A DNA stretch of 64,000 nt from an uncultured Acidobacteriota bacterium (GCA_963805495.1 CAWDUQ010000002.1:17244-81243); one strand, 5' to 3'. Positions 7,957 to 50,688 are shown, counted from the first letter of the stretch. Program-made: numbers and translations. Notes: generated by a model from the letters alone, not told the origin.

Positions 7957-7981
7957 GGGCGGGGGCCAGCCCCGCCCCTAC
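7957..7981 (-). repeat. Family-2 REP unit
   Basis: The reverse complement reads GTAG GGGCGGGG CTGGC CCCCGCCC. It lies between two convergent gene ends. Confidence 0.75.
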
Positions 7982-8015
7982 GAACCGGAGCGTCGATGGG
8001 GGATTGGCGCAACGA

Positions 8016-9719
8016 TCACGGGGTTTTCGTGGTTCTCGGCACGCCGCTCGAGATGAGCAGGATCCTTCCCGAGTGGTTTCCCTTGATCCCGCTCCAGGCC
8101 GACGTGATGAGGAGGTCGACGGTGCCGTCGCCGTCGGTGTCCCCCATGCCGACCGCGTCGAACCCGAACGTGTCGCCGGGGACGCGGCAGGTGTAGGTCT
8201 TCAGCAGCCTGCCGTCCCTGCCGGAATAGAGATACGTCCGTCCGCCCGATACGGCGGCGCCCGCGTACTGCCAGGCGCCGATGACGAGGTCGGGCCGGCC
8301 GTCGCCGTCGACGTCGCCCGCCGGGCCGGGGCCGATGCCGAAGCCTTCGCCGGCCGTTTCGCCGGTCAGAGTGAGGAGGCTCTTGCCGGTCTTGCCGGAG
8401 AACGCGTAGGCGCGGCCGGTGGAACGGCCTCTGGCCGAATTGGCGAAGTCGGTGGCGTAGAGGTCGGGGACGCCGTCGCCGTCGAGATCGCCCGGGACCG
8501 ACATGAACATGTAGCCGAAGGCGGCACCGGTCGCGTCGGACTCGAGGACGTAGCGGGGCTTTTCCGAGAGGCCGTCGTAGACGTAGACGCGGCCGGTCTT
8601 CTTCGGTCCCGCGGCCGGGGCGCCGACCATGAGGAAGGTGACTTTGCCGCGGGTGTAGCCGGCGACGGTCGAGCCGAAGCTGTCGCCTTCGCGTTCGCCC
8701 GTCCAGGTTGCAAGCTTGCGGCCGTCCTTGCCCGAGTAGAGATACGCGCGGCCGGCGTCCTTCCCGCCGGCGGCGTTGGTCGGTGCGCCGACGAGGACGT
8801 CGTCGTAGCCGTCGTGGTTCACGTCGCCGGCGTAGGTGACGTGGCGGCCGAAGGTGTCGGTCTTCGCCTCGGCGGTCAGCGTGACGAGGACGCGGCCGTC
8901 CTTGCCCGAGTAGACGTAGGCCTTGCCGCCGCCCGGCGCGCCGGCGACGACGTCCGGAACGCCGTCCTTGTTCGTGTCGCCGGCGAGCTCGACTCCCGTG
9001 CCGAGCTCCTCGCCGGGGGCGCCGTCGACTTTCCAGAGGAGCTTGCCCGTCTTCGTCGAGTAGACGTAGACGCGGCCGGCGTCCTTGCCGGTGCCGGCCC
9101 ACGAGGGCGCCGAGGTGACGAAGTCGGCGACACCGTCGCCGTCGACGTCGCCGAGGCTCCGCGCGATCCAGCCGAACTGGTCCCCCTGCGCCTCGCCGTC
9201 CCACTCGCGCAGGAGCTTCACGTTCTCGTCGGCGACGAAGGGGTTGGCGAAGTCCTCGGGCTTCGGAAGGAGGGCCGCGAAGCGCGGGTCGGACGAGATC
9301 GGCTTGAGGTCGTCGTCGACCTGGATCTGGGTCATGTCGATCTTCCCGGTCGCCTTCGCCTTGCCGAGCCACTCGAAGGCGGCGTCCTTGTTTCCCTCGA
9401 GGGCCCAGGCGACGCCGGTGTTGTAGAGGGCCTGCGGAGAGTCGGGGACGAGGGCGAGGAGCTTCGCGTAGGCGGCGCGCGCCTGCGTGTACTTCTTCTG
9501 CTTGAGGTAGGTGAAGCCGAGGTAGCGCCAGGCGACCTTGTTGCCCGGGTCGGCCGCGACCACGTTCTCGAGGATCGCGGATGCGCCGGCGAAGTCGCCC
9601 TGGCCGATCTTGCCGGCGGCGGCGGCGACGTCCTGGTCGGCGCCCGGCGGCGTCTGCGCGGCCGCGAAGGTCAGTGCAGCGGCGAGGGCGAGGACGGCGG
9701 CTATCAGCTTCTTGCTCAT
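8016..9719 (-). CDS. Secreted TPR + FG-GAP (integrin-alpha-like beta-propeller) repeat protein
   Basis: A signal peptide is followed by an N-terminal TPR region. After that come repeated FG..GD.DGDG..D..(V/I)GAP...G..Y(V/L)YSG..G units, the FG-GAP/VCBS-like pattern. Confidence 0.85.
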   Translation of the reverse strand: MSKKLIAAVLALAAALTFAAAQTPPGADQDVAAAAGKIGQGDFAGASAILENVVAADPGNKVAWRYLGFTYLKQKKYTQARAAYAKLLALVPDSPQALYNTGVAWALEGNKDAAFEWLGKAKATGKIDMTQIQVDDDLKPISSDPRFAALLPKPEDFANPFVADENVKLLREWDGEAQGDQFGWIARSLGDVDGDGVADFVTSAPSWAGTGKDAGRVYVYSTKTGKLLWKVDGAPGEELGTGVELAGDTNKDGVPDVVAGAPGGGKAYVYSGKDGRVLVTLTAEAKTDTFGRHVTYAGDVNHDGYDDVLVGAPTNAAGGKDAGRAYLYSGKDGRKLATWTGEREGDSFGSTVAGYTRGKVTFLMVGAPAAGPKKTGRVYVYDGLSEKPRYVLESDATGAAFGYMFMSVPGDLDGDGVPDLYATDFANSARGRSTGRAYAFSGKTGKSLLTLTGETAGEGFGIGPGPAGDVDGDGRPDLVIGAWQYAGAAVSGGRTYLYSGRDGRLLKTYTCRVPGDTFGFDAVGMGDTDGDGTVDLLITSAWSGIKGNHSGRILLISSGVPRTTKTP

Positions 9720-9814
9720 TTTGTCCCTCCGAAGTCGTCCGTCTTACGGGGTTCCGGCGCCGTGGTTTTGCCGAGGATCCGGACGGGACGCGTGAGGTCG
9801 ATTCCGTCGACTCC

Positions 9815-9921
9815 GGGAGGGGGCAAGCCCCTCCCCTACGAATACCGGCTGCTCGAACCCGTTTCGCCTTCCGTCAGAATTTTCGGGCCCTCGTACGTAG
9901 GGGCGGCCCTTGTGGCCGCCC
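9815..9921. repeat. Inverted pair of family-2 REP units (REPIN/BIME-like)
   Basis: 9815-9839 reverse complement: GTAG GGGAGGGG CTTGC CCCCTCCC. 9897-9921: GTAG GGGCGGCC CTTGT GGCCGCCC. The spacer is 57 nt, in a divergent intergenic region. Confidence 0.8.
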
Positions 9922-9957
9922 GCTCCGCCCGTCGGCTACCATGTCGCGGTGGAAGCG

Positions 9958-10853
9958 ATGGCGACCGGGCCTTCTCTCGGACCGTACGAGCGGATCCTCT
10001 GGAGCAATCCGTCGATGACGCTCGGCACCTTCGACGCCTCTCCCGAGAACGAAGACTTCGAGACGGCGGGGGCCGTCGGCGACCGGCCGGCGATCGCGTT
10101 CTCCCGCTCTTCGGTCGGGATCCTGCAGGCCAAGCGCGACGCGTTCGTCTCGGACGGGACGGTCGCGGTCCTGCACAACCCGCGGCATCCGTACCGGCGG
10201 TTTCGTGTGGATCGGCGGGGCGATCACTGCGAGTGGGTGTCGGTCGAGCCGGAGCTGCTGCTCTCCGCGAACCCGCGGCTGGGGCACGATCCGGGACGAC
10301 CCTTCGCGGTTCCGTACGTTCCTCTGGAGCGTCGCGCCGCGGCGCTCGTTCGCCTCGTCGCGCGCCACCTTCGCGAGTGGGCGCCGCCGGACGAGCTGTG
10401 GGTGGAAGAGACGTTGCTCGAGGTGCTGGGCCTGCTCGCGCCCTCGCCGCGAGCGCTCGCAGGACGGGCGCGACTCCGCGGCACGACCGGGTCGTCCGGA
10501 GCGTGCGGGAGCTTCTCTCGAGCCGGCCGGAGCAGCCGTGGACGGTCGCGTCGATCGCCAAGGTCGTGGGCGTGTCGCCGTTCCACATGTGCCGGGTCTT
10601 CCGGCGGCGCGCGGGCTACACGCTCCACGGGTATCTGACCGAGCAGAGGCTGCGCCGGGCGCTGGTGCTGCTCGAAGACGGGCAAACGGACCTGCGCGCG
10701 ATCGCGGCGTCGCTCGGGTTCTCGAGCCACAGCCAGTTCACGGCGCGTTTCCATGCGGCGTTCGGGGCGACGCCGTCGCGGTTTCGCCGCGGCGCCGCGC
10801 CGGCGGTCGTGCGGGGGATGGCGGAGAAGCTGCGCATGAACGCCGCGGGGTAG
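9958..10853 (+). pseudogene. AraC/XylS-family transcriptional regulator with an apparent frameshift
   Basis: The N-terminal sensor-like part (..MTLGTFDASPENEDFE..FSRSSVGILQ..YRRFRVDRRGDHCEWV..) is in the frame of ORF 9910-10638. The HTH part (RHDRVVRSVRELL..WTVASIAKVVGVSPFHMCRVFRR..GFSSHSQFTARF) is in the frame that ends at 10853. The switch lies near 10450-10480. Confidence 0.7.
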
Positions 10854-36391: not shown

Positions 36392-38121
36392 GCCGGTCCG
36401 GCCTCGCCGGCGGGTTCCGGGGCGCGCGGGAGCGTGACGATGAAGGTCGTGCCCTCCCGCAGCCGGCTCTCGACGGCGATCGAGCCGCCGAGCGCGTCCA
36501 CGATCCGCCGGACGAGGGAGAGACCGAGGCCCATGCCCCCCACGTTCCCGTGGGCCCGGCTGCCGCGGTAGAAGGGCTCGAAGATCCGCGGCAGCTCCGC
36601 TTCCGGGATGCCGGGGCCGCGGTCCCGGATGGCGACGCGGATGCCGCGTTCGTCGGCCGCCGCGGAGACCGTGACGCGGCCGTCCTCGCCGCCGTACTTG
36701 ATCGCGTTGGAGAGGAGGTTCTCCATCAACGTGCGCACGGCCGGCTCGTCGCCCGCGACCGGCGGCAGCCCCGGCGGGATGTCCGCGTCGACCCGCGCGC
36801 CATTCTGTTCGGCGAGGTGGCGGCAGGCGTCGATGGCCTGGCCGACCGCCTCCTGAAGCGACGCGGAGCCCGAGTGCACGCTCTCGCCGCGGGCCTCGAT
36901 TCCGGCCTGGGCCAGCGCCGACTCGATCAGGCTCGAGAGCCGCCGGCCCTCCCTCTGGATCAGGTCGCCGTACTTCCGGACACGCGGCGCGTCAGCGATG
37001 AGGCCGTCCGAGAGATTCTGCCCCGCCGACCGGATCGCCGCGAGGGGCGTGCGAAGCTCGTGCGTCAGGCTGGCGACGAACTCAACCTGCTGTCGGGCAA
37101 GAAGCGCGGAGCGGTGCGCCGACGTGACGAGCACCGCCACCGCCGCCGCCAGCAGCAGCAGGATGCCGCCGCTGACCGCGAGATTGCGGGTGCGCGTGGC
37201 GTCGACGACGTCGTCGAGCGAGCCCGCGCGGTGCGTGGCCACGAGGAGCCAGGCCGCGTGCGGCATCCGTCCGGGTCCGGGGCCCGCGCCGGGAGGAGGA
37301 GGCCCCTCCGGGGTGCCCCCGTCGCGCCGCGCGAGCGTCCCGGGCTCGGCGACGGGACGCGGTCCGAAGAGCGGGACCTCGGCGTCGGGGACCCGGCCGG
37401 CGGAGGGCGCGAAGTCCGGGCGGCTGCGGTAGAGGATCGGCCGCGGGTCGCCGGCCCCGAGAACGGCGATGTCGTAGTCGCCGCGGACGCCGAAGTGGCG
37501 CGCGACGAGCTGCGGAAGTATCCGGCTCGAGATCGCGGCGCCGTCGAGGCGCACCAGCAGCCCTTCGCCGGACTCGAGGACGCCGAGGACAAGAACCGGC
37601 GGATCGTCGAGCAGGCGGATGAAGGACATGCGGGGCGGGCCGGGTCGGTCGCCGCTCCCGGTCGGCGGCTCGGGCGGCCGGTCGCTCCCGGCCGCGAGGA
37701 CCTGTCTCACGCCGGCGAGCTCGGCCGGCCAGGGTGTCGACGAAAGTCGGCCGGAGGAATCCATCTGCTCGAAGGACCAGTTCCCGCGCCCGTCCCGGCG
37801 GACCACGTCGACGCCCGCAACGAGCGATGGGAAGCGGGCGTCGGCCGCCCACCTTGCGCGGGCGGCCGCAAGACCGGCGGCGAGGTCGGCGTCGCCGCGG
37901 GGCCGGAGCGCCTCGCCGAAGGTCCGCATGGCGCGCCCCACCTCGCGGTCGAACTCGATCGCAACCGCGTCGGCCGCCGCGCGGGCCGAGGCCTGGAGGC
38001 GCTCGCGCTCGGCGTCGCGAACCTCTCCGATCCAGCGGAACTGGAGGGTGGCGAGGACCGCGAGGAGCGCGAAGAGGAGGCCCGCGGCGAAGAGCGAGTT
38101 GCGAATCGCGCTGCGCGCCAT
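36388..38121 (-). CDS. Sensor histidine kinase
   Basis: H-box SLTHELRTPL, N-box NLLSNAIKY, and DRGPGI / GGMGLGLS are present. There are two TM segments around a periplasmic domain. An ATGA overlap links it to the regulator gene. Confidence 0.9.
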   Translation of the reverse strand: MARSAIRNSLFAAGLLFALLAVLATLQFRWIGEVRDAERERLQASARAAADAVAIEFDREVGRAMRTFGEALRPRGDADLAAGLAAARARWAADARFPSLVAGVDVVRRDGRGNWSFEQMDSSGRLSSTPWPAELAGVRQVLAAGSDRPPEPPTGSGDRPGPPRMSFIRLLDDPPVLVLGVLESGEGLLVRLDGAAISSRILPQLVARHFGVRGDYDIAVLGAGDPRPILYRSRPDFAPSAGRVPDAEVPLFGPRPVAEPGTLARRDGGTPEGPPPPGAGPGPGRMPHAAWLLVATHRAGSLDDVVDATRTRNLAVSGGILLLLAAAVAVLVTSAHRSALLARQQVEFVASLTHELRTPLAAIRSAGQNLSDGLIADAPRVRKYGDLIQREGRRLSSLIESALAQAGIEARGESVHSGSASLQEAVGQAIDACRHLAEQNGARVDADIPPGLPPVAGDEPAVRTLMENLLSNAIKYGGEDGRVTVSAAADERGIRVAIRDRGPGIPEAELPRIFEPFYRGSRAHGNVGGMGLGLSLVRRIVDALGGSIAVESRLREGTTFIVTLPRAPEPAGEAGPA

Positions 38122-38274
38122 GCGGGCAATCTAGCATCGGGTCCGGCCGGGCCGGGGCGATCCCGGACGGATTTACATCTCTTACCGAAGCCTTGCCGCG
38201 CCGTGATGACCCGGGGGCGCGCGACGCGAGATCCTTCCCGTCGTTCGCGGCGAGACCGCGGAAAGGAGCCGGAC

Positions 38275-38781
38275 ATGACGAGGGTGGGGAAGACCGGGCT
38301 CGGCATCGCGGGCGGTTTGGTCCTGGCGGGGTCCCTGGCCTTTGCGCAGGATGCGGGGCGGCGGCCGCTCCTGCCTGGCGGCGGTGCGGGACACGGGCGC
38401 TGCGGCGAGAAGCTCGTCCAGTCGCTCGGCCTGTCGGCGGACCAGCAGGCCGCGCTCGAGACGCTGCGGAACGAAACCGCGGACGCGATCCGCCCGCTCG
38501 CCGAGCAGCTGCATGCGCTCCACGGGCAGATCGAGACCGCGGCCGACGGCGCGAGCCCGGACGCGTGCGCGATCGGCGGCCTGGTGATCCAGGGCAAGGC
38601 GATCCGTTCTCAGATGGACGAGGTACGGAAGACCGCCGAAGCGACGTTCGTCGCGGGGTTGTCGGCCGACCAGAAGGCGACGTACGATGGCTACGTTTCG
38701 ATCAATCCGGAATGCACGGCGGTCGGAGCCGGCTTCATGCGGCCGTTCCCGATGGAGCCTCCCCGGGCGCAGCACTTCTGA
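38275..38781 (+). CDS. Periplasmic CpxP/Spy-like (LTxxQ-motif) protein
   Basis: AAAGGAG lies upstream of the ATG and there is a signal peptide. Two LSADQ(Q/K) motifs sit in helical context. The gene is divergent from the two-component operon. Confidence 0.6.
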   Translation: MTRVGKTGLGIAGGLVLAGSLAFAQDAGRRPLLPGGGAGHGRCGEKLVQSLGLSADQQAALETLRNETADAIRPLAEQLHALHGQIETAADGASPDACAIGGLVIQGKAIRSQMDEVRKTAEATFVAGLSADQKATYDGYVSINPECTAVGAGFMRPFPMEPPRAQHF

Positions 38782-38835
38782 AGCGCGGGCCGCACGGCGG
38801 CCACGGCTGGCGCGAGTCTTGCTCGTTCGGAGGGA

Positions 38836-39591
38836 ATGGAACCAGAAGTCGGCATCTTCGAATCGCGGGAGAGCGCGCTCGCGGCGGCTCGTGAGTTGCG
38901 CGATCGCGGGATTCCGCACGACCGCATCGAGCTTCTTCTTCCGGGCCACCAGGGCGAGGCGGAATCCGCCGTTCCGACCGACGAGGCGGAGCAGCCCGGC
39001 GTCGGCCGCGCGCTCGGAGGCGTGACGGGCGGGGCGATCGGGGCCTCGGCCGGCCTCGGCATCGGCGCCGCGGTGGCGAGCCTGATGCTCCCGGGCGTCG
39101 GCGCCGTGACGGCGATCGGCCTCGCGGCGGCGGCGCTCTTCGGGGCGGGCGGCGCGGCGGCCGGGATCGCGGCCGGCGGCGCGCTCGAGGACCGGAGCTA
39201 CCGCGGGCTCCCGAAGGACGAGCTCTATCTTTACGAGGATGCCCTGGCGCACGGGCGCGCGGTGCTCTTCGCGACGCCGGACTCGCAAGGGCAGGCGGAA
39301 GCGGTCAAGGCGGTCATCCTTGCGGCCGGCGCGGAGAGCCTCGATGCCGCGCGCGATGCGTTCTGGGTCGGCATCCGCGACGCGGAGAAGGCGCACTACG
39401 AGTCTTCGCCGTCCCGCGAGCCCTTTCGCTCCGTGGAGGGCGCCTATCGACGCGGATATCTCGCGGGCCTGACCGGCAGGGCCGCCCCCGAGGGCGAGCT
39501 GCGGTCGAACGCCGAGAAGGACGCGTACCGCACAGGTTTCGAGCGGGCGCGTTCGCGCCAGCGCGCCGAGACGACGGCCTCGGTCCACTGA
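38836..39591 (+). CDS. Membrane protein with a glycine-zipper segment (general-stress-protein-like)
   Basis: The central segment GGVTGGAIGASAGLGIGAAVASLMLPGVGAVTAIGLAAAALFGAGGAAAGIAAGG is flanked by soluble domains. Confidence 0.5.
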   Translation: MEPEVGIFESRESALAAARELRDRGIPHDRIELLLPGHQGEAESAVPTDEAEQPGVGRALGGVTGGAIGASAGLGIGAAVASLMLPGVGAVTAIGLAAAALFGAGGAAAGIAAGGALEDRSYRGLPKDELYLYEDALAHGRAVLFATPDSQGQAEAVKAVILAAGAESLDAARDAFWVGIRDAEKAHYESSPSREPFRSVEGAYRRGYLAGLTGRAAPEGELRSNAEKDAYRTGFERARSRQRAETTASVH

Positions 39592-39686
39592 TTCTGGCCG
39601 TGGCGGGCGATCGCGTGACTCCCCGCGCGCGAGTCACTCAGGGCCTCTGGCACCGTGATTGCTCCTCCGAGACTTCGGAGGTGAAC

Positions 39687-40889
39687 ATGCAGAAGAAGAC
39701 TGTGCTGTTCGCGGCGATTTTTGCGGGCGTCCTCGCCGTCGCCGCACCCTCGGCTCCGGCGCGCGCAGATGTCGCCGTGAGCTTCTCGTTTTTTCACCGG
39801 AACCTCTCGCCGTACGGCCGGTGGGTTTCCGTGGGGTCCTACGGCCAGTGCTGGGCTCCCGCCGGCGTCCTGGCCGGCTGGCAGCCGTACACGGTGGGCC
39901 ACTGGATTTACACCGACTACGGCTGGACCTGGGTGTCCTCGGATCCCTGGGGCGACGTCACGTACCGCTACGGAACCTGGACCCTCGCGCCGCCTTATGG
40001 CTGGGTGTGGGTCCCGGGGTTCGTCTGGGCGCCGTCCTGGGTGACGTGGTCGTACACGGATGACTACGTGGGATGGGCTCCGATTCCGCCCACGTTCTCG
40101 CTGTCGGTCTCGGGCTACGTCGGGGCCCCGGTCATCGTCAGCCGGACGGCCTACGTCTTCGTCCCGACCAACCGATTCGTCAACGCGGACGTGACTCGTG
40201 TGCGGGTCCCCGTCCAGGACAACTCCGTCATTCTCGCGCGCAGCCGGAAGGTGACGCGCTTCCCGGTCTCGGGTGGCATCGTCCGGAACCAGGGACCCGA
40301 GCCCGCCCGGATCGAGCGGGTGGCGAAGGTCTCCATCCCGCGAGCGGGAGCCGGCGAAGTCGGGATCGCGCCGGTCCGTGTCGACGCCCATCGGAGCGGG
40401 AACCGGATCTCCGTGGTCGCTCCGGCCTCCGCCAAGAAGACGGAAGGCCGGGCGGTCTCGGCGACCGGGAAGTCCTCGTCCGGCAAGCGGAGCACGCACA
40501 ATGAAGGCGCTCGGCCGCCCGCGTCGCGCGAATCGCAACCCAGGGCCACCCACGAAACGCATCCTTCGCACGACAAGGATCGCTCCGTCAAGGTCGAGGA
40601 GAAGCCGAGCCACGGAACGGCGGCGCGGCCGCCGGAAACCCGGGAATCGGTGCCCTCGCGCCAGAAGGCCCGGCCCGAGACTCACGAGTCGACGGCGACG
40701 CACCAGGCCCGCGCGGAGGAACACGTGCGCCCCGGCGAGAAGCCGGCTCCGAAGGAGTCTGCGCATTCCGAATCGGCCCGGCCGAGCGAGCCTCACGGAG
40801 CGCCGCAGAATGAGAAGCGCGCGCACGCGAAAAAGCCCCCGGCCAGGCCCCGGCCCGAGAAGGCGGACAAGGGCGAGAAGCCTTCCTGA
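39687..40889 (+). CDS. Secreted protein with Y/W-x-W-G-x-W-type repeats and a long basic low-complexity tail
   Basis: GGAGGTG lies upstream of the ATG and there is a signal peptide. The repeats are YGRWVSVGSYGQCWAP, GHWIYTDYGWTWVS and YGTWTLAPPYGWVWVPG. The last 160 aa or so are rich in His, Lys, Pro, Glu and Ser. Confidence 0.6.
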   Translation: MQKKTVLFAAIFAGVLAVAAPSAPARADVAVSFSFFHRNLSPYGRWVSVGSYGQCWAPAGVLAGWQPYTVGHWIYTDYGWTWVSSDPWGDVTYRYGTWTLAPPYGWVWVPGFVWAPSWVTWSYTDDYVGWAPIPPTFSLSVSGYVGAPVIVSRTAYVFVPTNRFVNADVTRVRVPVQDNSVILARSRKVTRFPVSGGIVRNQGPEPARIERVAKVSIPRAGAGEVGIAPVRVDAHRSGNRISVVAPASAKKTEGRAVSATGKSSSGKRSTHNEGARPPASRESQPRATHETHPSHDKDRSVKVEEKPSHGTAARPPETRESVPSRQKARPETHESTATHQARAEEHVRPGEKPAPKESAHSESARPSEPHGAPQNEKRAHAKKPPARPRPEKADKGEKPS

Positions 40890-40899
40890 AGCAGGTCGC

Positions 40900-41601
40900 A
40901 TGGACGACATCGAGAAGGGCGGACGCCGAGTCCGCCCTTCGATGTATTCGGGCGGGCCGGCCCGGACGCGCTCCGGCGGTATAGTCACCGCCGTGCGGGC
41001 GGAGCGGTCGGGCCCCCTGACCGGCGTCGTTCTCGCGGCGGGCGCTTCCACGCGCATGGGCGAGAACAAGCTGTTCCTGCGCGTCGGCGGCGAGACGATG
41101 CTCCGGCGGGTGGTCCGGCGGGCGCTCGGGGCCGGGCTCGATCCGGTGATCGTGGTTCTCGGCCACGAGGCGGACCGGGCGCAGTGGGAGCTCGCGGACA
41201 TCGGAGCCGTTTCGGTCCGCAATCCGGACTTCGCGGCCGGCCAGCACACTTCGTTCCGGGCCGGGATCGCGGCGGTGCCTCCCGGCGCGTCCGGCGCCGT
41301 CGTCCTGCTCGCCGACATGCCCCACGTGGACGAGGCCATGATCGCCGCGCTCGTCGACCGTTACCGCGAATCCGGGAGTCCCCTCGTGATCTCCGAGTAC
41401 GGGGGCGTCCATGCGCCGCCGACCCTCTACGACCGGGCGCTCTTCGAAGAGATCGCGGCGATGACCGGAGGCGGCTGCGGACGCCAGGTGGTCGAGCGCC
41501 ACCGCGCCGAGGCGGGCGTCGTCGCCTGGCCCGCCGAGAAGCTCGCGGACCTCGACTCGCCGGCGGACGTCGAGAATCTCCGCGCGTCCGGGGCCGCGTA
41601 G
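40900..41601 (+). CDS. mocA: MobA/MocA-like molybdenum cofactor cytidylyltransferase
   Basis: GVVLAAGASTRMGENKL is the NTP-transferase P-loop-like motif, and ..LLADMP.. is present. The start is uncertain: ATG 40900, ATG 40942 or GTG 40993. Confidence 0.8.
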   Translation: MDDIEKGGRRVRPSMYSGGPARTRSGGIVTAVRAERSGPLTGVVLAAGASTRMGENKLFLRVGGETMLRRVVRRALGAGLDPVIVVLGHEADRAQWELADIGAVSVRNPDFAAGQHTSFRAGIAAVPPGASGAVVLLADMPHVDEAMIAALVDRYRESGSPLVISEYGGVHAPPTLYDRALFEEIAAMTGGGCGRQVVERHRAEAGVVAWPAEKLADLDSPADVENLRASGAA

Positions 41602-41605
41602 CCGC

Positions 41606-42589
41606 ATGCGCGCCGACCTCCTCGCCCTCGCGGGCCGGCTCGCCGAAAAGGAGGAGGCCTTCGCCCTGGCGACGGTCGTGCGCCGGCAGGCCGCTTCGAG
41701 CGCCCAGGCCGGCGACGGGGCGCTCATCACGGCGGACGGCGCCTTCCACGGCTGGCTCGGGGGAAGCTGCACGCAGCCGACCGTGATCCGCGAGGCGCTC
41801 AAGGCGATCACCGACGGCGCGCCGCGTCTGATCGCGCTCGCGCCGGACCCGCAATCCGAAAAACGCCCCGGGATCCTGGTGTTTCCGATGACCTGCCACA
41901 GTGGAGGCAGCGTGGACATATACATCGAACCGGTCCTGCCGCCGGCGCGGCTACTCGTCTTCGGAGTCTCGCCCGTCGCGCAGGCGCTCGCGCGGCTGGG
42001 TCGCGCGATGGGCTACGCGGTCCACGTGGCCGACCCGGCGGCGGAGCCGGGCGCGTTTCCGGGCGCCGAGCGGCTCTGGACCGGTCCCGACGAGGTGCTG
42101 GCGCTGCCGGGCGGCCGCCCCTGGGCGGTCGTCGCGACGATGGGCGAGCGCGACGAGGCCGCGGTCCGGGCCGCGCTCTCGGCCGATCCGGCCTACCTCG
42201 GCGTCGTCGCGAGCTCGAAGCGTTTCGGAGAGATCCGCGAGTCGCTCCTCTCCGGCGGCGTCGACGCGCAGGCCCTCGCCCGGATCCAGAGCCCCGCGGG
42301 CCTCGACATCGGCGCGCGCGCCCCGGAGGAGATCGCGGTCTCGATCCTCGCCGAGATCGTGCGCGTGCGCCGGTCCGGTGCGGAGCCGGCCCGCGCGCCG
42401 GCGGGTCTTCCCGTCGTGGAGGCGCGCGAGGAGCGCGACCCGGTCTGCGGAATGACGGTCGAGGTCTCCGGCGCGCGCCACCGGGCGGAGGTCGGAGGCC
42501 GCACCTGGTATTTCTGCTGCGGGGGGTGCCGCGAGAAGTTCCTCGCGGCCCCGGCGCGCTTCGCGCCGGCAGCGGGAGCGGGCGCGTGA
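41606..42589 (+). CDS. XdhC/CoxF-type molybdoenzyme maturation factor fused to a C-terminal YHS/TRASH metal-binding domain
   Basis: The XdhC_CoxI N-domain is ..FALATVVRRQAASSAQAGDGALI... A Rossmann-like domain LLVFGVSPVAQALARL follows. The C-terminus DPVCGMTVEVSGARHRAEVGGRTWYFCCGGCREKFLAAPARF fits the YHS pattern. Confidence 0.85.
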   Translation: MRADLLALAGRLAEKEEAFALATVVRRQAASSAQAGDGALITADGAFHGWLGGSCTQPTVIREALKAITDGAPRLIALAPDPQSEKRPGILVFPMTCHSGGSVDIYIEPVLPPARLLVFGVSPVAQALARLGRAMGYAVHVADPAAEPGAFPGAERLWTGPDEVLALPGGRPWAVVATMGERDEAAVRAALSADPAYLGVVASSKRFGEIRESLLSGGVDAQALARIQSPAGLDIGARAPEEIAVSILAEIVRVRRSGAEPARAPAGLPVVEAREERDPVCGMTVEVSGARHRAEVGGRTWYFCCGGCREKFLAAPARFAPAAGAGA

Positions 42590-43485
42590 GGCAGGAGATC
42601 CGGGCGATCCAGGAAGGGATGGAGCGCCAGGGGTACATCGCCGAGCCGGCGATCGCGACCTCTCTTTTCCTCTCGACCGAGATGGGCAAGCCCCTCCTCG
42701 TCGAGGGCGACGCCGGCGTCGGAAAGACCGAAATCGCGAAGGTCCTGGCGCGCCTGCTCGGCCGGCCGCTGATCCGCCTGCAGTGCTACGAGGGGCTCGA
42801 CGTCCAGACCGCGCTCTACGAGTGGGACTACCCGAGGCAGATGCTCCGCCTGCGGATGGCGGGGGAGAGCGGCATGGACCCCGAAGCCGCCGAGCACGTC
42901 ATCTTCTCGCGCAAGTACCTCCTGGAGAGGCCGATCCTGCAGGCCATCACCCTGAAAGACGGGCCGGCCGTGCTCCTCATCGACGAGATCGACCGGGCCG
43001 ACGACGGGTTCGAGGCGTTCCTCCTCGAAGTGCTCTCGGACTTCCAGGTCACGATCCCGGAGCTCGGGACGATCCGCGCCGAGCACCGGCCCCACGTCGT
43101 CCTGACGTCCAATCGGACGCGCGAGATCGGGGACGCGCTGCGCCGCCGCTGTCTCTACCTCTATGTCGAGCACCCGAGCTTCGAAAAGGAGGTCCGCATC
43201 ATCCGGGCGCGCGTGCCCGGGGCGAGCGAGAAGTTGTCGGCCGAGATCGGACGCTTCCTGCAGGCGCTGCGCGGGCGGCGCCTGCTCAAGGCGCCGGGCG
43301 TGGCCGAGACGATCGACTGGGCGCAGGCCCTCGTGCGCCTCCACCGCGACGGCCTCGACGCCGAGACCGTCCAGCAGACGCTGGGTTGCCTGCTCAAGGA
43401 TCACAACGACATCGTCGACCTGGCCGCCCCCGAGCTTTCGACCCTCGTCGACGGGGCGCGCGCCGAGGCGGCTTCGATAGGATGA
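42586..43485 (+). CDS. coxD: MoxR-like AAA+ ATPase (CoxD-type)
   Basis: Walker A GDAGVGKT and Walker B LLIDEIDRA are present. The GTG start overlaps the upstream stop (GTGA). Confidence 0.9.
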   Translation: MRQEIRAIQEGMERQGYIAEPAIATSLFLSTEMGKPLLVEGDAGVGKTEIAKVLARLLGRPLIRLQCYEGLDVQTALYEWDYPRQMLRLRMAGESGMDPEAAEHVIFSRKYLLERPILQAITLKDGPAVLLIDEIDRADDGFEAFLLEVLSDFQVTIPELGTIRAEHRPHVVLTSNRTREIGDALRRRCLYLYVEHPSFEKEVRIIRARVPGASEKLSAEIGRFLQALRGRRLLKAPGVAETIDWAQALVRLHRDGLDAETVQQTLGCLLKDHNDIVDLAAPELSTLVDGARAEAASIG

Positions 43486-44732
43486 CCGCGGTGGACCTCG
43501 TGGCGCACGTGGCGGCTTTCGCTGGCGCTCTTCGGGAGCGCGGGGTCCGCGCGGGCCTCTCGGACGAGGCTGACGCCGTGGCCGCCCTGACGCTCGTCGA
43601 CCTCGCGGACCGCGAGGAGGTGCGCCTGGCGCTGCGGACGGCGCTGAAAATCCGCGCGCGCGACGCCGGGGTCTTCGAGGAGCTCTTCGCGCGCCTCTGG
43701 AGCAGCGCGGGCCGGCCGGCGCGCGAGCGCGCGGCCCGGGCCCGGTCGAGTCGGCGGGATGCGCCGCAGAAAAACTTCGGCGGCCTGCCGGCGTCGGCGG
43801 CCCGGGAAGTCGACCGGGAGGTGCGCGACGGGTCGGACCGAACGCCCGGCTACAGCCCCGAAGCGATGCTTCGCCGCAAGCCTTTCGACGAATGCTCCGA
43901 GCGGGACCTCGCCGCGATGGAGCGGCTGATGTCGCGCCTCGCCCTCTCGCTTGCGACGCGCCGCAGCCGGCGGCTCGTCCCGACCCGGGGCCGCGGCCGC
44001 GTCGATCCGCGCCGCAGCTTCCGGAAGGCCGTCGGGACGGCCGGCGAGCCGCTGCGCTTGGCGCGGCGGGAGCGGGCGATCGAGGAGCCGCGCCTGGTCG
44101 TCCTCTGCGACACCAGCGGCTCGATGGACCGCCACGTGCGGTTCCTGCTTTCCTTCCTGCTGTCGCTCAAGAAAGCCGCGCGCCGCACCGAGCTCTTCGC
44201 GTTCAACACCTCCCTCGTGAGGCTGACGCCCTGGATCTCGCCGGCGAAGATCGCGGCCACACTCGAGCGCCTCGCCGCCGGCGTTCCGGGCTGGTCCGGC
44301 GGCACCCAGATCGGCCGCAGCCTCGGCGCCTTCGTCGAGCGATACCTGGACGAGCTCGTCGATGCGAGGACGGTGGTCGTGATCGTCAGCGACGGTCTCG
44401 ACCGCGGGGACACGGCGGAGCTCGCGGCGGCGATGCGGGCGATCCGAGCCCGGGCGCGCAGGATCGTCTGGCTCAATCCGCTGCTCGGCGACGCGCGGTA
44501 CGAGCCGACCGCGCGGGGAATGGCGGCCGCCCTGCCGCACGTCGACGTCTTCGCGTCGGCGCACAACCTGGAAGCGCTCGAGAGGCTCGTTCCGCGGCTG
44601 TCGGCCGCCAGGGGTCAGCGTCTCGGATTTTTCGGATCCGAACCGGCTAGATCATTGGACGAGTCAGCCCTCGGATCCGAAAAATCGAGACCTGACCCCG
44701 TCGTTTTTCGCCTTCGAAAGGAGAGGTCATGA
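43482..44732 (+). CDS. coxE: VWA-domain protein (CoxE-type) with a repeat-encoded C-terminal extension
   Basis: [14 protein letters not shown] and ..[16 protein letters not shown].. are present. The homology-like sequence ends near ..[11 protein letters not shown]. The final 40 codons or so are read through the family-1 hairpin at 44611-44699. ATGA overlaps occur at both ends. Confidence 0.85.
44611..44699. repeat. Family-1 variant inverted pair (89-nt hairpin)
   Basis: Left arm: GGGGTCAGCGTCTCGGATTTTTCGGATCCGAA. Right arm, reverse complement: GGGGTCAGGTCTCGATTTTTCGGATCCGAGGG. It lies between the CoxE-like body and the coxM start. Confidence 0.8.
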
Positions 44733-45598
44733 TCCCGGCTGCGTTCGACTACCACTCTCCCGGCTCGCTCGCCGAGGCGCTCGAGCTCCTCGGCCGCTAC
44801 GACGACGCGAAGGTGCTGTCGGGAGGCCAGAGCCTCCTGCCGCTTCTGAAGCTTCGCCTCGGCTCGGCCGGGCACCTGATCGACATCAACCGCCTGCCCG
44901 GTCTCGAGTACATCAAGGAGGAGGGCGGGTTTCTGAAGATCGGCGGCCGGACGCGCGAGACGGCCCTCGAGCGGTCCGACATCGTTCGCGCGAAGTACCC
45001 GATCCTGGCCGACACCGCGGCCGTGATCGCGGACCCGATCGTGCGCAACCTCGCGACCGTCGGCGGCAACCTCGCGCACGGGGACCCGGCCAACGACCAC
45101 CCGGCGACGATGCTCGCCCTGGGGGCGGTCGTCGTCGCGACCGGACCGAAGGGCGAGCGAATGATTCCGATCGACGAGTTTTTCACGGGCCTCTTCGAGA
45201 CGGCGCTCGGGAAGAACGAGATCCTGACCGAGATCCGGGTTCCGCGTCCCGAGGGCAAGAGCCGCGGCGCCTACGTCAAGCTCGAGCGCAAGGTCGGGGA
45301 TTTCGCGACGGCGGGCGTGGCCGCGCAGGTCACTCTCGGTGCGGGCGGCGAGATCGCGAAGGCCGGCATCGGCCTGACCAATGCGGGCCTCACCCCCGTG
45401 CGGGCCGCGGAGGCCGAGAAGTTCCTCCAGGGCAAGAAGCCCGACGCCGCGACGATCGCGGAGGCGGGCAGGCTCGCGGCGGGGGCCTCGGATCCCTCGC
45501 CGGACCGGCGGGGCACGGTCGAGTACAAGAAGGAGATGGCCCGCGTGCTCACGATGCGGGCGTTGAAGAAGGCCGTCGAACGGGCCCAGGGAGCGTAG
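44729..45598 (+). CDS. coxM: CO dehydrogenase medium (FAD-binding) subunit
   Basis: AAGGAGAGG lies upstream of the ATG. The FAD-binding pattern ..[14 protein letters not shown].. is present and the size (289 aa) and position before coxS-coxL fit. Confidence 0.9.
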
Positions 45599-45600
45599 CC

Positions 45601-46089
45601 ATGGCGAAACACCACATCAAGATCACGGTCAACGGTGCCGCGCGCGAGGGGGACGTCGAGTCGCGCACCCTCCTCGTCCATTTCCTCCGCGAGACGCTTC
45701 GACTGACGGGGACGCACATCGGCTGCGACACGTCGCACTGCGGCGCGTGCACCGTGCTCCTCGACGGGACTCCGGTCAAGTCGTGCACCGTCCTTGCCGT
45801 GCAGGCCGACGGCCGGCAGGTCATGACGGTCGAGGGGCTCGAGCAGGGGGGCAAGCTCGACCCGATCCAGGAGGGCTTCTATCAGGAGCACGGCCTGCAG
45901 TGCGGCTACTGCACGCCCGGCATGATGATGACGAGCTACGCTCTGCTGAAGATCAACGCGAGCCCGAGCGAGGGGGAGATCCGGCAGGCCATCTCCGGCA
46001 ACCTCTGCCGGTGCACCGGCTACGTCAACATCGTCAAGTCCGTCCAGCACGCGGCGGCGGCCATGGGCGCGGCCGCGCCCGCGAAGTAG
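45601..46089 (+). CDS. coxS: CO dehydrogenase small ([2Fe-2S]) subunit
   Basis: The two cluster motifs are [11 protein letters not shown] and CGYCTPG...CRCTGY. Confidence 0.95.
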
Positions 46090-46097
46090 GGGGATCC

Positions 46098-48464
46098 ATG
46101 GAACCCAAGACGACCGCCGCCGTCGGAGGCATGGGCCACTCGATCAAGCGCAAGGAAGACCCGCGCTTCCTCCGCGGCCAGGGCAACTACGTCGACGACA
46201 TCCAGCTTCCGGGCATGCTCCACATGGACATCGTCCGCAGCCCCTATGCCCACGCGAAGATCAAGAAGATCGACTCCTCGAAGGCCCTCCAGGTGCCGGG
46301 CGTGCTCGCCGTCATCACCGGCGAGACGCTCGCGCAGTACAAGCTCCACTGGATGCCGACGCTGATGTCGGACACCCAGATGGTGCTCCCGACCGACCGC
46401 GTCATGTACCAGGCCCAGGAGGTCGCGGCGGTCATTGCGACCGACCGCTACACGGCGGCCGACGGGGTCGCGGCCGTCGAGGTCGAGTACGAGCCGCTGC
46501 CCGTCGTCCTCGACCCGTTCGAGGCGATGAAGCCGGGCGCGCCGGTGCTGCGGACCGACAAGGAAGGAAAGAAGGACAACCACATCTGGCACTGGGAGGC
46601 CGGGGACCGGGCGAAGACCGACGCCGCGTCGAAGGCCTCGGACGTCGTCGTCCGCGAGAAGATCTACATCCCGCGCATCCACGTCGCCTCGATCGAGACC
46701 TGCGGCTGCGTCGCGGACTTCCATCCCGCGACCGGCAAGCTCATCGTCTACATGACGACGCAGGCGCCGCACGCGATCCGCACGGTCTTCGCGCTCGTCG
46801 CCGGCCACGTGGGCCTCTCGGAGGAAAAGATCCGGATCGTGTCGCCCGACATCGGCGGCGGCTTCGGCGGGAAGGTGCCCGTGTACCCGGGGTACGTCAT
46901 CGCGGTCGCGGCCTCGGTCGTCATCGGCAAGCCCATCAAGTGGGTCGAGGACCGGATGGAAAACCTGCAGGCGGATTCCTTCGCCCGCGACTACCACATG
47001 GAGGCCGAGCTTTCGGCGAAGAAGGACGGCACCATGACGGCCCTGAAGATCAAGACCGTCGCCGACCACGGCTACGCCGACGCCGCGGCGAACCCGTCCA
47101 AGTTCCCGGCCGGGCTCTTCTCGATCTGCACCGGCTCCTACGACATCAAGACCGCGTTCTGCGAGGTCGACGGCGTCTACACGAACAAGCCGCCGGGAGG
47201 CGTCGCGTACCGCTGCTCGTTCCGCGTCACCGAGGCCGTGCACGCCATCGAGCGGATGGTCGACCGGCTCGCGCAGGAGCTGAAGATGGACCCGGCCGAG
47301 CTGCGGATGAAGAACTTCATCCCGCCCGACAAGTTCCCGTACCACTCGGCGCTCGGCTGGGAGTACGACAGCGGCAACTACCCCGCGGCCCTGAAGAAGG
47401 CCATGGAGATGATCGACTACGCGGGCCTGCGCAGGGAGCAGGCCGAGAAGCGGAAGAAGGGCGAGTTGATGGGCATCGGCATCTCGAGCTTCACCGAGAT
47501 CGTCGGCGCCGGGCCCTCCAAGCACTTCGACATCCTCGGCATCAAGATGTTCGACTCCTGCGAGCTCCGGATCCACCCCACGGGCAAGGCGATGGCGCGC
47601 TTCGGCACGAAGTCCCAGGGCCAGGGCCACGAGACGACCTACGCCCAGATCATCGCCGAGGAGCTCGGCATCCCCGCCGCCCACGTCGAGGTCGAAGAGG
47701 GCGACACGGACACGGCGCCCTACGGCCTGGGCACCTATGCCAGCCGCTCCACGCCGACGGCCGGCGCGGCCGGGGCGATGGCGGCCCGCAAGGTCCGCGA
47801 CAAGGCCCGCAAGATCGCGGCGTACCTGCTCGAGGTGGCCGAGGAGGACCTCGTCTGGGAGCCGGGCAAGTTCTCGGTCAAGGGCGCGCCGCAGAAATCC
47901 AAGACGATCCAGGACATCGCGTTCGCGGCCTACACGAACCACCCGCAGGGGATGGAGGCGGGGCTCGAGGCCGTCGACTACTACGATCCGCCAAACCTGA
48001 CGTTTCCGTTCGGCAGCTACATCTGCGTCGTCGACATCGATCGCGGCACGGGCGAGGTCAAGATCCGCCGGTTCGTCGCGGTCGACGACTGCGGCAACAT
48101 CATCAATCCCATGATCGTCGACGGCCAGATCCACGGCGGCCTTTCGATGGGCATGGCCCCGGCCCTGATGGAGGAGATCACCTACGACGCCAACGGCAAC
48201 AACCAGGCCGGCAGCTTCATGGACTACCTCGTTCCGACGTCGATGGAGACGCCGAAGTGGGAAACCGGCAAGACCGTGACGCCTTCGCCGCACCATCCGT
48301 TCGGCGCGAAGGGCGTGGGGGAGTCGGCCACGGTCGGCGCGCCGCCGGCGATCGTGAACGCCGTCGTCGACGCCCTGTCGCACCTGGGCGTGAAGCACAT
48401 CGACATCCCGATGACCCCCGAGAAGGTCTGGAACATCCTCCACGCCAAAGGGGTCGCCGAGTAG
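46098..48464 (+). CDS. coxL: Form I aerobic CO dehydrogenase large (Mo-Cu) subunit
   Basis: 788 aa of the molybdopterin hydroxylase family. The active-site loop GGVAYRCSFRVTEA carries the form I AYxCSFR signature. The gene order is M-S-L. Confidence 0.92.
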   Translation: MEPKTTAAVGGMGHSIKRKEDPRFLRGQGNYVDDIQLPGMLHMDIVRSPYAHAKIKKIDSSKALQVPGVLAVITGETLAQYKLHWMPTLMSDTQMVLPTDRVMYQAQEVAAVIATDRYTAADGVAAVEVEYEPLPVVLDPFEAMKPGAPVLRTDKEGKKDNHIWHWEAGDRAKTDAASKASDVVVREKIYIPRIHVASIETCGCVADFHPATGKLIVYMTTQAPHAIRTVFALVAGHVGLSEEKIRIVSPDIGGGFGGKVPVYPGYVIAVAASVVIGKPIKWVEDRMENLQADSFARDYHMEAELSAKKDGTMTALKIKTVADHGYADAAANPSKFPAGLFSICTGSYDIKTAFCEVDGVYTNKPPGGVAYRCSFRVTEAVHAIERMVDRLAQELKMDPAELRMKNFIPPDKFPYHSALGWEYDSGNYPAALKKAMEMIDYAGLRREQAEKRKKGELMGIGISSFTEIVGAGPSKHFDILGIKMFDSCELRIHPTGKAMARFGTKSQGQGHETTYAQIIAEELGIPAAHVEVEEGDTDTAPYGLGTYASRSTPTAGAAGAMAARKVRDKARKIAAYLLEVAEEDLVWEPGKFSVKGAPQKSKTIQDIAFAAYTNHPQGMEAGLEAVDYYDPPNLTFPFGSYICVVDIDRGTGEVKIRRFVAVDDCGNIINPMIVDGQIHGGLSMGMAPALMEEITYDANGNNQAGSFMDYLVPTSMETPKWETGKTVTPSPHHPFGAKGVGESATVGAPPAIVNAVVDALSHLGVKHIDIPMTPEKVWNILHAKGVAE

Positions 48465-48466
48465 GT

Positions 48467-48519
48467 GGGGTCAGCCCTGAAAGAATGACACTTGGGGCCT
48501 GACCTGAACATCTGACGTT
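48467..48519 (+). repeat. Family-1 tandem doublet
   Basis: GGGGTCAGCCCTGAAAGAATGACACTT followed by GGGGCCTGACCTGAACATCTGACGTT. The first 27 nt are identical to the reverse complement of 29884-29910. The doublet starts 3 nt after the coxL TAG. Confidence 0.85.
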
Positions 48520-48533
48520 TATGGAGGGCCGGC

Positions 48534-49472
48534 TCAGGCGGCGCCGACCCGCAGGCGCCGCCGCGACGAGGCCTGGATCGCGCGGACGAAATCCTCGATG
48601 AAGGGGAGTGGCCGGCGCCGCTTGAGCGTCGCGGCGCTCCAGTGCCGCCGGAGTCCCTTGCGCGTGATGCGCTTCGCCGCGAGCGTGCCCGCGCGAACCT
48701 GGGGCGCGACGGCCCAGCGCGCGAGAACTCCGACGCCGAGGCCGGCGCGGGCCATCTCGATCAGGGCCTCCGTCAGCTCGATCGGCGACCAGCGGCGCGG
48801 CTCGACGCCCGCGGGCCGCAGCACGTAGCGATAGACGTCGAGGTCCTCGCGCGGGACCGACAGCGTCAGGAGCGTCTCGCCCGCGAAATCGGCGGCTTCG
48901 AGGTGCGGCCGCTTCGCCAGGGGATGGCGCGTGCTCATGACGGCGACGAGCTCGTCGTCGAACAGGGGATGGACCGCGATCCGGCGGCTCTTGACGGGAT
49001 CGCTGACGATCCCGACGTCGAGGTCGCCCGAGAGGAGCGCCGGAATCGGGCGCCGCGTGGCTTCGAGCACGATGCGGACGTCGACGGACGGATGGTTCGT
49101 CTGGAAGGCCCGGAGCGGCTCCGGGAGCCAGTGGTAGCAGGTGTAGCACTCGGTGGCGAGGCGGAGCACCCCGGCCGGGTCCGCCGACGTCGCAGCGATG
49201 TCCCGGGCGGCCGAGGCCATCTCCTCGCCAACCTTCCGCGCCGCCTCGATCAGGCGCACCCCCGCGGGCGTCGGTGTCATCCGCTTGTGGCCTCGCTGGA
49301 AGAGGGAGGTATCGAGGGCGCGCTCGGCGTCCGCGAGCTGGTGGGAGAGTGCAGATTGGGAGAGGTGAAGTCGCCGCGCGGCGGCGGTCAGCGTGCCCTC
49401 TTCGGAAACGGCGAGAACGAGCTGCAGGTGCCGGAGGTCGAGGCCGGCGGACGGTCGCTCCACGATGTTCAT
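48534..49472 (-). CDS. LysR-family transcriptional regulator
   Basis: The N-terminal HTH is [34 protein letters not shown], followed by a LysR substrate-binding domain. Confidence 0.9.
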
Positions 49473-49476
49473 GAGG

Positions 49477-49490
49477 ATATCGCATGATAT
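49477..49490. promoter_or_regulatory. AT-rich inverted repeat ATATC-N4-GATAT in the 11-nt gap between divergent start codons; candidate LysR box
   Basis: ATATCGCATGATAT is flanked by two TCATGA hexamers and overlaps the ATG at 49484. Confidence 0.35.
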
Positions 49491-50344
49491 TCATGAGAAC
49501 AATTCGCTTTCAGGATGACCGTGGGGCGCGTAATCTGGCGGCCGTGGGGGAGCGGCTGAAGACCGAGACGATCGACCGGGACGCCGTTCTCTTCCGCGGG
49601 GAGAAATACGACTCGGGGGCGCTGGCGCTCCTCGACGGAGGCCGGGCGCTTCTCGTGGACGGGCTCGGCTCGGCCGAAGACGCCGCACAGCTGAAGTCCG
49701 TCCTCGTCGGCGAGATGGGCCGGCGCGTGGAGCTTCTGGTCAGCACCCACTACTTCAGCGACCACATGGCCGCCTGGAGGACGTTTCCGGAGGCGCCGGT
49801 CGTCGCCCATGAAAACTCCGTCGCCACGTTCTGGACGGAGAAGTTCCGCTCGCCGGAAGAGGCGGCCCACTTCCGTTCTCCGACGTACCGGCTCGCCGGG
49901 CGGCTCGGCCTGACCTGGGGACGGTTCAACCTCGAGCTCTTCGAGAACCCCGGCCACACGGCGGGCACGCTCAACGTCGACATTCCCGAGCTCGACCTGC
50001 TGCACGTCGGGGACACGGCCGTGGGACGGATGGCGTACATCCACTATTCGGCGCCGGAGGCGGTCGACCGGGCGCTCGCGCGGGCGCTCGGCCGGGGCCG
50101 GGGGCGCGTCCTGCGCTCGCACGGCCCGCTCACGGATGACGGGGCGCTCCGCTCGGCGCGCGGATATCTCGCGAACCTGCGGGCCCGTGTGCTCGAAGCG
50201 CGCGCGGCGGGGCGGCCGGTCGAAGAGATCCGGATCGAGGAGTGCCTGCCGGCCGGTCCGCCGGCCACGGACTTCGAGACGCTCTTCCACCGGCGCAACC
50301 TCGCTTCGATCGAGGTGCGCGGGCTCTACGCGGTGGCCGCGTGA
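49484..50344 (+). CDS. MBL-fold metallo-hydrolase
   Basis: STHYFSDH (an HxHxDH variant) and NPGHTAGT are present. The start is uncertain (49484, 49493 or further downstream) because it lies only 11 nt from the divergent LysR start. Confidence 0.7.
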
Positions 50345-50688
50345 TCGTCGTCCTGTTCCGGTCGCGGCTGACCGACGAGGCCGGTGAAGAATACGCGGCG
50401 ATGGACCAGATGCTCGCCGAGAAGGCGCGGAACGCCCCCGGTTTCGTCGACGTCAAGAGCTTCACCGCGTCCGACGGCGAGCGCCTGACGATCGTCTGGT
50501 GGAAGGATCTCGAGACGCTCCGTCAGTGGCGGGAGGATCCCGCCCACCGCGTCGCGCAGGAGAAAGGCCGGCGGCTCTGGTATCGGTACTACGACATGGA
50601 GGTGGCCGAGGTCGTCCGCGAGAGTCACTTCGCGCGGCAAAGTTCAGACTTTCAGGTCAGGCCCCAGGTTACAGACTTGCAGGGCTGA
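50341..50688 (+). CDS. ABM (antibiotic biosynthesis monooxygenase)-domain protein with a repeat-encoded tail
   Basis: The GTG start overlaps the upstream stop (GTGA). [10 protein letters not shown]...FVDVKSF..DGERLTIVWWKDLETLRQWREDPAH is an ABM pattern. The last 16 codons or so and the TGA (50686-50688) lie inside the family-1 doublet. Confidence 0.75.
   Translation: MIVVLFRSRLTDEAGEEYAAMDQMLAEKARNAPGFVDVKSFTASDGERLTIVWWKDLETLRQWREDPAHRVAQEKGRRLWYRYYDMEVAEVVRESHFARQSSDFQVRPQVTDLQG

Follow-up and report, generated by a model that had tools for sequence, protein, structure and literature searches.

Among described aerobic carbon monoxide (CO) dehydrogenase systems, that of Oligotropha (Afipia) carboxidovorans OM5 is encoded by the cluster coxBCMSLDEFGHIK on pHCG3, and atmospheric CO oxidation, like the transfer of electrons to menaquinone, is modelled on the Mo-CO dehydrogenase of Mycobacterium smegmatis (8UEM; PMC12202499), an enzyme with a form I CoxL. 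Among cultured organisms in the collections searched, Thermomicrobium roseum (megaplasmid NC_011961) has the CoxL nearest to the protein described here, at 73% identity; T. roseum oxidises CO to sub-atmospheric levels (PMC6776052), a measurement made on the organism and not tied to the locus compared here. Genome surveys have recorded form I coxL in Acidobacteriota since 2019, as well as in many other soil phyla (PMC6794299). The locus described here lies in a 64,000-nt stretch of DNA from an uncultured Acidobacteriota bacterium (GCA_963805495.1, CAWDUQ010000002.1:17244-81243; hereafter the window), part of a Thermoanaerobaculia-type acidobacterial genome of 4.44 Mb that is 98% complete. Positions 40900-48464 of the window very probably form one operon for an aerobic form I [MoCu] CO dehydrogenase together with its own maturation machinery, from which a capacity for CO oxidation is predicted. 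Judged by its sequence, the locus is a real but ordinary Mo-Cu CO dehydrogenase operon in a soil acidobacterium, and with it one more genus of uncultured acidobacteria joins the many putative aerobic CO oxidisers already listed. Less usual are the fusion of a metal-binding domain of copper type to the maturation protein CoxF and the lack of CoxG, a quinone carrier tethered to the membrane.

By every sequence test run, the large subunit CoxL is form I. An earlier note on this DNA had based the assignment on the active-site loop VAYRCSFR, and the loop is indeed present (VAYRC373SFR), matching V384-R391 of Oligotropha CoxL residue for residue. In a six-frame motif scan of the genome, VAYRCSFR/AYRCSFR occurs once, in the CoxL of the window, and the form II motif AYRGAGR also occurs once, at C2:198292, in a separate S-L-M cluster 133 kb away. 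Global alignment with Oligotropha CoxL (59.7% identity) reveals that the Cu-ligating Cys388, Gln240, and Glu763 of that enzyme are kept as C373, Q222, and E742. On the NCBIfam equivalog TIGR02416, CoxL scores 1257.3 bits against a cut-off of 991.15, and the next best match in the genome, the form II paralog, scores 746 bits. CoxL is 59–73% identical to the CoxL proteins of cultured CO oxidisers versus 45% to the genome's own form II paralog. In phmmer searches of the PDB, the best matches are the structurally characterised Mo-Cu enzymes, CutL (1FFU; 1086 bits), M. smegmatis CoxL (8UEM; 1076 bits), and 1N5W (1040 bits), followed by a quinoline oxidoreductase at 484 bits.

The phylogeny agrees with these assignments. 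In an IQ-TREE analysis of 32 sequences, CoxL falls into a clade with Oligotropha, Thermomicrobium, Natronorubrum, and Nonomuraea with 100/100 support, and the five AYRGAGR sequences, one of which is the genome's own paralog, group apart from it. Clustering with form II, which the earlier note had named as the observation that would overturn its assignment, is not what the tree contains; since CoxL passes all of the sequence tests for form I, that objection falls away. The further prediction of atmospheric or trace CO oxidation goes beyond what the sequence supports, as affinity is not readable from it.

The region is a single co-directional series of reading frames with family matches throughout: mocA, xdhC-like, coxD, coxE, coxM, coxS, and coxL. 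Translations together with Pfam and NCBIfam matches place the genes of the note at the coordinates it gave, all on the + strand. These genes, two repeat elements, and the convergent neighbour are as follows:

40900-41601, + strand: mocA-like gene, MobA-family nucleotidyltransferase (PF12804, 1.5e-38; best NCBIfam match TIGR03310 (MocA), 135.6 bits)
41606-42589, + strand: coxF ortholog, XdhC family plus YHS domain (PF02625, PF13478, PF04945)
42586-43485, + strand: coxD, MoxR-type AAA+ ATPase (PF07728; GTG start)
43482-44732, + strand: coxE, VWA protein (PF05762, 192.8 bits)
44611-44699, no strand: repetitive extragenic palindrome (REP)-like hairpin of 89 nt at the coxE-coxM junction (fold, repeat search)
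44729-45598, + strand: coxM, medium subunit, flavin adenine dinucleotide (FAD)-binding (PF00941, PF03450)
45601-46089, + strand: coxS, small subunit with two [2Fe-2S] clusters (PF01799, PF00111)
46098-48464, + strand: coxL, form I Mo-Cu large subunit (TIGR02416, 1257 bits)
48467-48519, no strand: copy of a dispersed repeat directly 3′ of the coxL stop (repeat search)
48534-49472, − strand: LysR-family regulator, convergent (PF00126, PF03466)

All seven operon frames are intact, with conserved catalytic and nucleotide-binding motifs, in a window where long spurious frames are abundant because the guanine-plus-cytosine (GC) content is 70%. The structural order coxM-coxS-coxL, with FAD and two-[2Fe-2S] subunits, is as proposed (translations, Pfam). 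The genes share one strand, and neighbours overlap or lie no more than 8 nt apart. The 4-nt overlaps reported earlier exist at xdhC/coxD (GTGA), coxD/coxE (ATGA), and coxE/coxM (ATGA), but the remaining junctions are gaps, of 4 nt at mocA/xdhC, 2 nt at coxM/coxS, and 8 nt at coxS/coxL. Two start codons merit comment. Because alignments of the mocA-like product to its relatives begin near residues 30–40, GTG 40993 is a likelier start than ATG 40900; the GTG start of coxD is supported, as 27 of 36 alignments to relatives begin at residue 1. An Rfam scan of 38000-50500 (E ≤ 1), covering for example a Moco riboswitch ahead of mocA, returned no match.

The gene described earlier only as xdhC-like is an XdhC-family gene but can be named more closely. 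Both CoxF and CoxI of the Oligotropha cluster are XdhC-family proteins, and the window protein is 39% identical to Oligotropha CoxF over 264 residues versus 24% to CoxI; it is therefore assigned as the CoxF ortholog. It carries the XdhC N-terminal and Rossmann domains (PF02625, PF13478), and its gene adjoins coxD. It follows that coxF is not missing and that coxF, coxD, and coxE are all present, in the order F-D-E, directly 5′ of coxMSL, so the form I locus does come with its maturation genes. CoxD (53% identical to Oligotropha CoxD) displays Walker A GDAGVGKT and Walker B LLIDEID in its translation, and CoxE (34% identical to Oligotropha CoxE) has a VWA_CoxE domain (PF05762) whose metal-ion-dependent adhesion site, DTSGS, fits DxSxS. 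Both are single-copy in the genome. A search of the genome for coxI located a CoxI-like XdhC gene outside the locus, at C2:173804-174809 (− strand), which is 35% identical to the C-terminal half of Oligotropha CoxI and adjoins no molybdoenzyme genes.

The CoxF of the window differs from that of Oligotropha, a 280-residue protein, in possessing a C-terminal YHS domain. An XdhC-family body (residues 1–258) is followed by a disordered linker (259–272) and a YHS/TRASH domain (275–320; PF04945, 41.8 bits against a gathering threshold of 30.3). The AlphaFold2 model (mean predicted local distance difference test score (pLDDT) 84.6) resolves the body and the small C-terminal domain with confidence, joined by the linker at pLDDT 33. 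A fold search with this model retrieved only XdhC-like structures, the body matching the mycobacterial Rv0376c homologue 2WE8, and a PDB sequence search with the YHS segment alone gave only a marginal LIM-domain match. The three cysteines of the domain, C281-X22-C304-X3-C308, fit the TRASH pattern C-X19-22-C-X3-C and are invariant in 52 homologs; the residues invariant among the fusions are D278-P279, C281, M283, F303-C304, C308, and F312.

The fusion is widespread. It is present in frame in 51 of 56 CoxF-type genes beside form I coxL. It also occurs in T. roseum, whose XdhC-YHS protein is 46% identical to the window protein over the full length, and in the haloarchaeon Natronorubrum; Oligotropha and Nonomuraea lack it. 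On a plasmid of Natronorubrum bangense the order is coxG-coxMSL-coxF·YHS-coxD-coxE-DUF364-coxI, with moeA and a mocA-like gene divergent upstream, so CoxF-YHS crosses domains of life. In a sample of 151 Acidobacteriota genomes, each genome with a form I CoxL has a strong CoxF match beside coxL. The XdhC homologs in this sample that reach into the YHS part either neighbour form I coxL or come from contigs that are short or broken (G011, G084); matches to the weaker XdhC paralogs listed all stop by about residue 269. The best 120 of 6811 database homologs of CoxF all contain PF04945, and the names of these 120 say no more than “XdhC family” or “xanthine dehydrogenase accessory factor”.

The only model of how copper gets to the Mo-Cu site was built on motifs spotted in Oligotropha CoxF: from a Cu-site motif and a phytase motif, Pelzmann et al. 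suggested that this protein supplies the copper (PMC4240915). Both motifs are proposals rather than established family signatures. Of the Cu-site motif, MCPSHGTM in Oligotropha, only the cysteine and the neighbouring histidine are kept here (MTC97H98SGGS). YHS domains have been proposed as copper sensors (PMC4626032), and by analogy with that work and with its domain family the YHS domain of CoxF may bind copper; we propose it as the copper-acquisition arm of the protein. More specifically, and at slightly less than an even chance, the tethered YHS/TRASH domain would be a dedicated Cu(I)-capturing module feeding the Mo-S-Cu site and would mark the prevalent form of CoxF, found in the mixed soil clade described below, in Thermomicrobium, and in haloarchaea, to which Oligotropha CoxF would be the exception. 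A literature search found no paper containing both “CoxF” and “YHS” and none linking XdhC with YHS/TRASH, although the search was incomplete and does not prove novelty. A widespread and conserved cysteine-rich fusion offers a concrete domain and a testable handle on copper insertion.

In gene order, the locus shares with Oligotropha the M-S-L arrangement of subunits, alongside the active-site loop and the second-sphere residues, but the maturation genes are upstream in the window (mocA-F-D-E) and, as the earlier note correctly stated, downstream in Oligotropha (D-E-F). The window locus also lacks the coxG, coxH (MHYT), coxB/C, and coxI of that cluster. The T. roseum locus resembles the window in having an XdhC-type gene with a YHS fusion beside coxL and no adjacent coxG, and differs in that coxF·YHS is downstream of coxL and coxD and coxE are not adjacent. 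The upstream placement of the maturation genes is thus real, but it is not peculiar to this genome. When the window proteins were mapped onto 80 related loci, the order (coxI-like)-mocA-coxF·YHS-coxD-coxE-(coxG)-coxMSL emerged as the rule for CoxL identities of at least about 81% and was conserved in more than 30 loci. Both this order and the fusion are the common layout of a large clade of soil metagenome-assembled genomes (MAGs) spanning several phyla (Thermoanaerobaculia, Vicinamibacterales, Gemmatimonadales, Myxococcota, and Burkholderiales; CoxL 81–98% identical). Unlike the window, about 27 loci of the clade have an anchored coxG, and many have a coxI-like gene upstream of mocA. In more distant relatives (Blastocatellia, Methylomirabilota, Thermomicrobium, Natronorubrum, and Oligotropha), the accessory genes are downstream, in several orders.

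MAGs of uncultured Acidobacteriota and Thermoanaerobaculia supply the closest CoxL sequences, which are up to 98% identical. Form I CoxL was found in 13 of 25 species genomes of the genus, a count that includes one genome where two contig ends each carry part of the gene and its score does not reach the cut-off. None of the 16 genomes that represent other genera of the order has it. In the evenly drawn sample of 151 Acidobacteriota genomes, eight carry a form I CoxL above the cut-off and one more has a cut-short match below it. In the CoxL tree, sequences of Acidobacteriota, Myxococcota, Gemmatimonadota, Methylomirabilota, and Pseudomonadota are intermingled, a pattern that fits the horizontal spread described in the literature.

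In the clade, the gene directly upstream of coxM in the approximately 27 loci encodes, where read, an SRPBCC domain followed by a Pro/Ala-rich linker and a C-terminal transmembrane helix, an architecture as shown for M. smegmatis CoxG. This gene is missing from the window, from its nearest relatives (L008–L012 and L014), and from a largely Burkholderiales subgroup. The statement of the earlier note that no coxG is visible is right for the window, and the genome has a single PF06240 match, at C2:199928-200350. That homolog, of about 150 residues and without linker or transmembrane helix, is 26–30% identical to the anchored CoxG encoded between coxE and coxM in relatives, and is the first gene of the form II (AYRGAGR) cluster. 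Across the genus, only such an unanchored homolog beside the form II locus was found, and one 96%-complete genus genome with form I has no CoxG homolog at all. The form II cluster itself (C2:196160-200350; 4162-8420 of locus L090, − strand) has the order coxG-coxS-coxL-coxM, with no coxD, coxE, or coxF nearby and with pyruvate-dehydrogenase-type E1 alpha and beta genes directly upstream.

These observations raise the possibility that form I CO dehydrogenase works in this genus with no membrane-anchored CoxG at all. If so, another route from the FAD to the quinone pool would be implied, and the genus would constitute a natural test of the generality of the quinone-extraction model derived from M. 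smegmatis. The lack of an anchored CoxG is the main caveat on the predicted respiratory oxidation of CO.

The site occupied by coxG in most relatives is occupied here by a hairpin. The 89 nt at 44611-44699 fold into an almost perfect hairpin (−67.3 kcal/mol, z = −5.76) with 25-nt arms that recur at no fewer than 14 other places in the genome, often as inverted pairs. No such hairpin is present at the coxE-coxM junction of relatives L009, L012, and L014, in which CoxE ends in ...LSAA followed by a stop and a short spacer; because it is absent from relatives that keep the coxE stop, the hairpin is a lineage-specific REP-like insertion. In the window the ancestral stop is lost, and 41 codons read through the element to a TGA that overlaps the coxM ATG; coxE and coxM would not overlap without this read-through of the inserted hairpin. 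The coxM ribosome-binding site (GGAGAGG) and ATG are intact downstream of it. The junction also varies among other relatives. In L008 (CAWCPN010000002.1, locus 8612-9992; CoxL 98% identical), the coxE frame has no stop before coxM and stays open far into coxM/coxS, which reflects either a junction of different sequence or an assembly error (an indel). In L010 and L011 (Thermoanaerobaculia), about 1.3 kb lies between coxE and coxM, without a coxG match.

A mechanism can be outlined by analogy with the Oligotropha and Mycobacterium systems that have been characterised. For this organism, the analysis establishes which genes are present, which residues are conserved, the phylogeny, and the synteny, and we infer activity, affinity, copper binding, and the electron route. 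The MocA-like protein would convert Mo-molybdopterin into the molybdopterin cytosine dinucleotide cofactor, and CoxM, CoxS, and CoxL would assemble into an (LMS)2 apoenzyme. The MoxR ATPase CoxD would power sulfuration of the Mo site, after which CoxE, through its VWA domain, and the XdhC-type CoxF would place Cu(I) onto the Mo-S group and Cys373, with the flexibly tethered three-cysteine YHS/TRASH domain serving in copper acquisition. In the mature enzyme, CO would be oxidised at the Mo-S-Cu site and electrons would travel via both [2Fe-2S] clusters of CoxS and then the FAD of CoxM to a respiratory quinone. This last step is uncertain in a genus with no anchored CoxG, where the SRPBCC homolog next to the form II locus, itself unanchored, is all that is available.

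Several findings weigh against the reading of the locus as a functional form I operon. The MocA-like product, at 135.6 bits, falls below the TIGR03310 equivalog cut-off of 186. A promoter scan identified no promoter-like site 5′ of mocA or coxM. The phytase motif RHGXRXP proposed for Oligotropha CoxF reads RRSGAEP here and is not conserved. Although the genome is 98% complete, it yielded no membrane-anchored CoxG partner. At the coxE-coxM junction, the very stable stem with a T5 run 4 nt downstream lies directly 5′ of coxM, and CoxE gains 41 residues; stem and T5 run could attenuate or uncouple coxM expression, or could stabilise the upstream mRNA. As for expression, no sequencing run contained a near-identical locus. 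Four soil metatranscriptomes yielded abundant short contigs matching conserved parts of coxS, coxL, and coxD; because these are mostly 90–95% identical and cover short conserved segments, they are attributed to relatives.

Among the alternatives, it is rather unlikely that the enzyme oxidises CO but is poorly or differently coupled to respiration for want of a membrane-tethered CoxG in the genus; electrons might then leave through the soluble SRPBCC protein linked to form II, by direct membrane contact, or to another acceptor. This alternative qualifies only the last step of the mechanism, is compatible with the form I operon, and overlaps with it in probability, so that the two are not additive. 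The distant, unanchored nature of the sole PF06240 homolog, the same state throughout the genus, and the nearly complete form I genome without any homolog all speak for it, as does the finding that M. smegmatis cells need membrane-anchored CoxG for CO oxidation (PMC12202499). Nor is coxG universal: of 30 surveyed organisms, 24 have it in the cluster, four have it elsewhere in the genome, and two have no homolog (PMC12202499). Against this alternative, in Oligotropha the loss of coxG slows but does not abolish CO-dependent growth (PMC4240915). That half of the species in the genus have kept an intact operon speaks for a useful function, and a divergent SRPBCC protein or an unrelated carrier could have escaped the searches. 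The hairpin bears on a different alternative, an improbable one, that the operon is impaired or decaying because the insertion alters the CoxE C-terminus and splits the maturation genes from the structural genes. The lineage specificity of the insertion, its removal of the ancestral coxE stop, and the stability of the hairpin (−67 kcal/mol) fit such decay, but seven intact frames with their conserved motifs and the preserved GGAGAGG and ATG of coxM 3′ of the hairpin do not. REP elements are common within operons, where they usually modulate mRNA stability with function kept.

Two further alternatives are both very improbable. A form-I-like enzyme of the xanthine oxidase family acting on a substrate other than CO is conceivable in that no acidobacterial CoxL is known to have a demonstrated function; Cordero 2019 names phyla in which coxL is present but activity is undemonstrated (PMC6794299). 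This is hard to reconcile with a Cu-ligating loop and second-sphere residues identical to those of structurally characterised CO dehydrogenases, with the nesting of CoxL in the clade of characterised CO dehydrogenases, and with the Cu-insertion genes coxDEF alongside. The locus might also be foreign to the organism, through mis-binning or very recent transfer, as the interleaving of several phyla in the CoxL phylogeny points to frequent transfer and the other genera of the order yielded no form I. Yet it sits 46 kb inside a contig of 1.76 Mb whose GC is uniform, repeat families scattered through this genome have copies within it, and its distance from the form II/CoxG locus is conserved, at 105–135 kb, in at least eight species of the genus. 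The locus belongs to this genome.

Neither gene flanking the operon is conserved beside cox in the loci compared. Upstream, a gene for a DUF6600 protein with a long His/Lys/Pro/Glu-rich tail (39600-40889) ends 10 nt before the annotated mocA ATG and is syntenic with cox in no related locus. Downstream, the repeat at 48467-48519 has partial copies elsewhere in the genome, on C1, C2, and C4. It was considered as a terminator and rejected, since it folds no better than shuffled sequences (z = −0.72); a terminator scan produced hits only at background level and no terminator at this position. The LysR gene that the earlier note saw converging on the 3′ end of the operon is there, on the − strand, but a role as a dedicated cox regulator was rejected because none of the 80 related loci has a homolog of it next to coxL, and it is not syntenic even in the closest relative. 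Among the loci compared, only Oligotropha has a LysR gene nearby, an unrelated one at 24% identity, and the LysR gene of the window is probably a neighbour rather than a part of the system.

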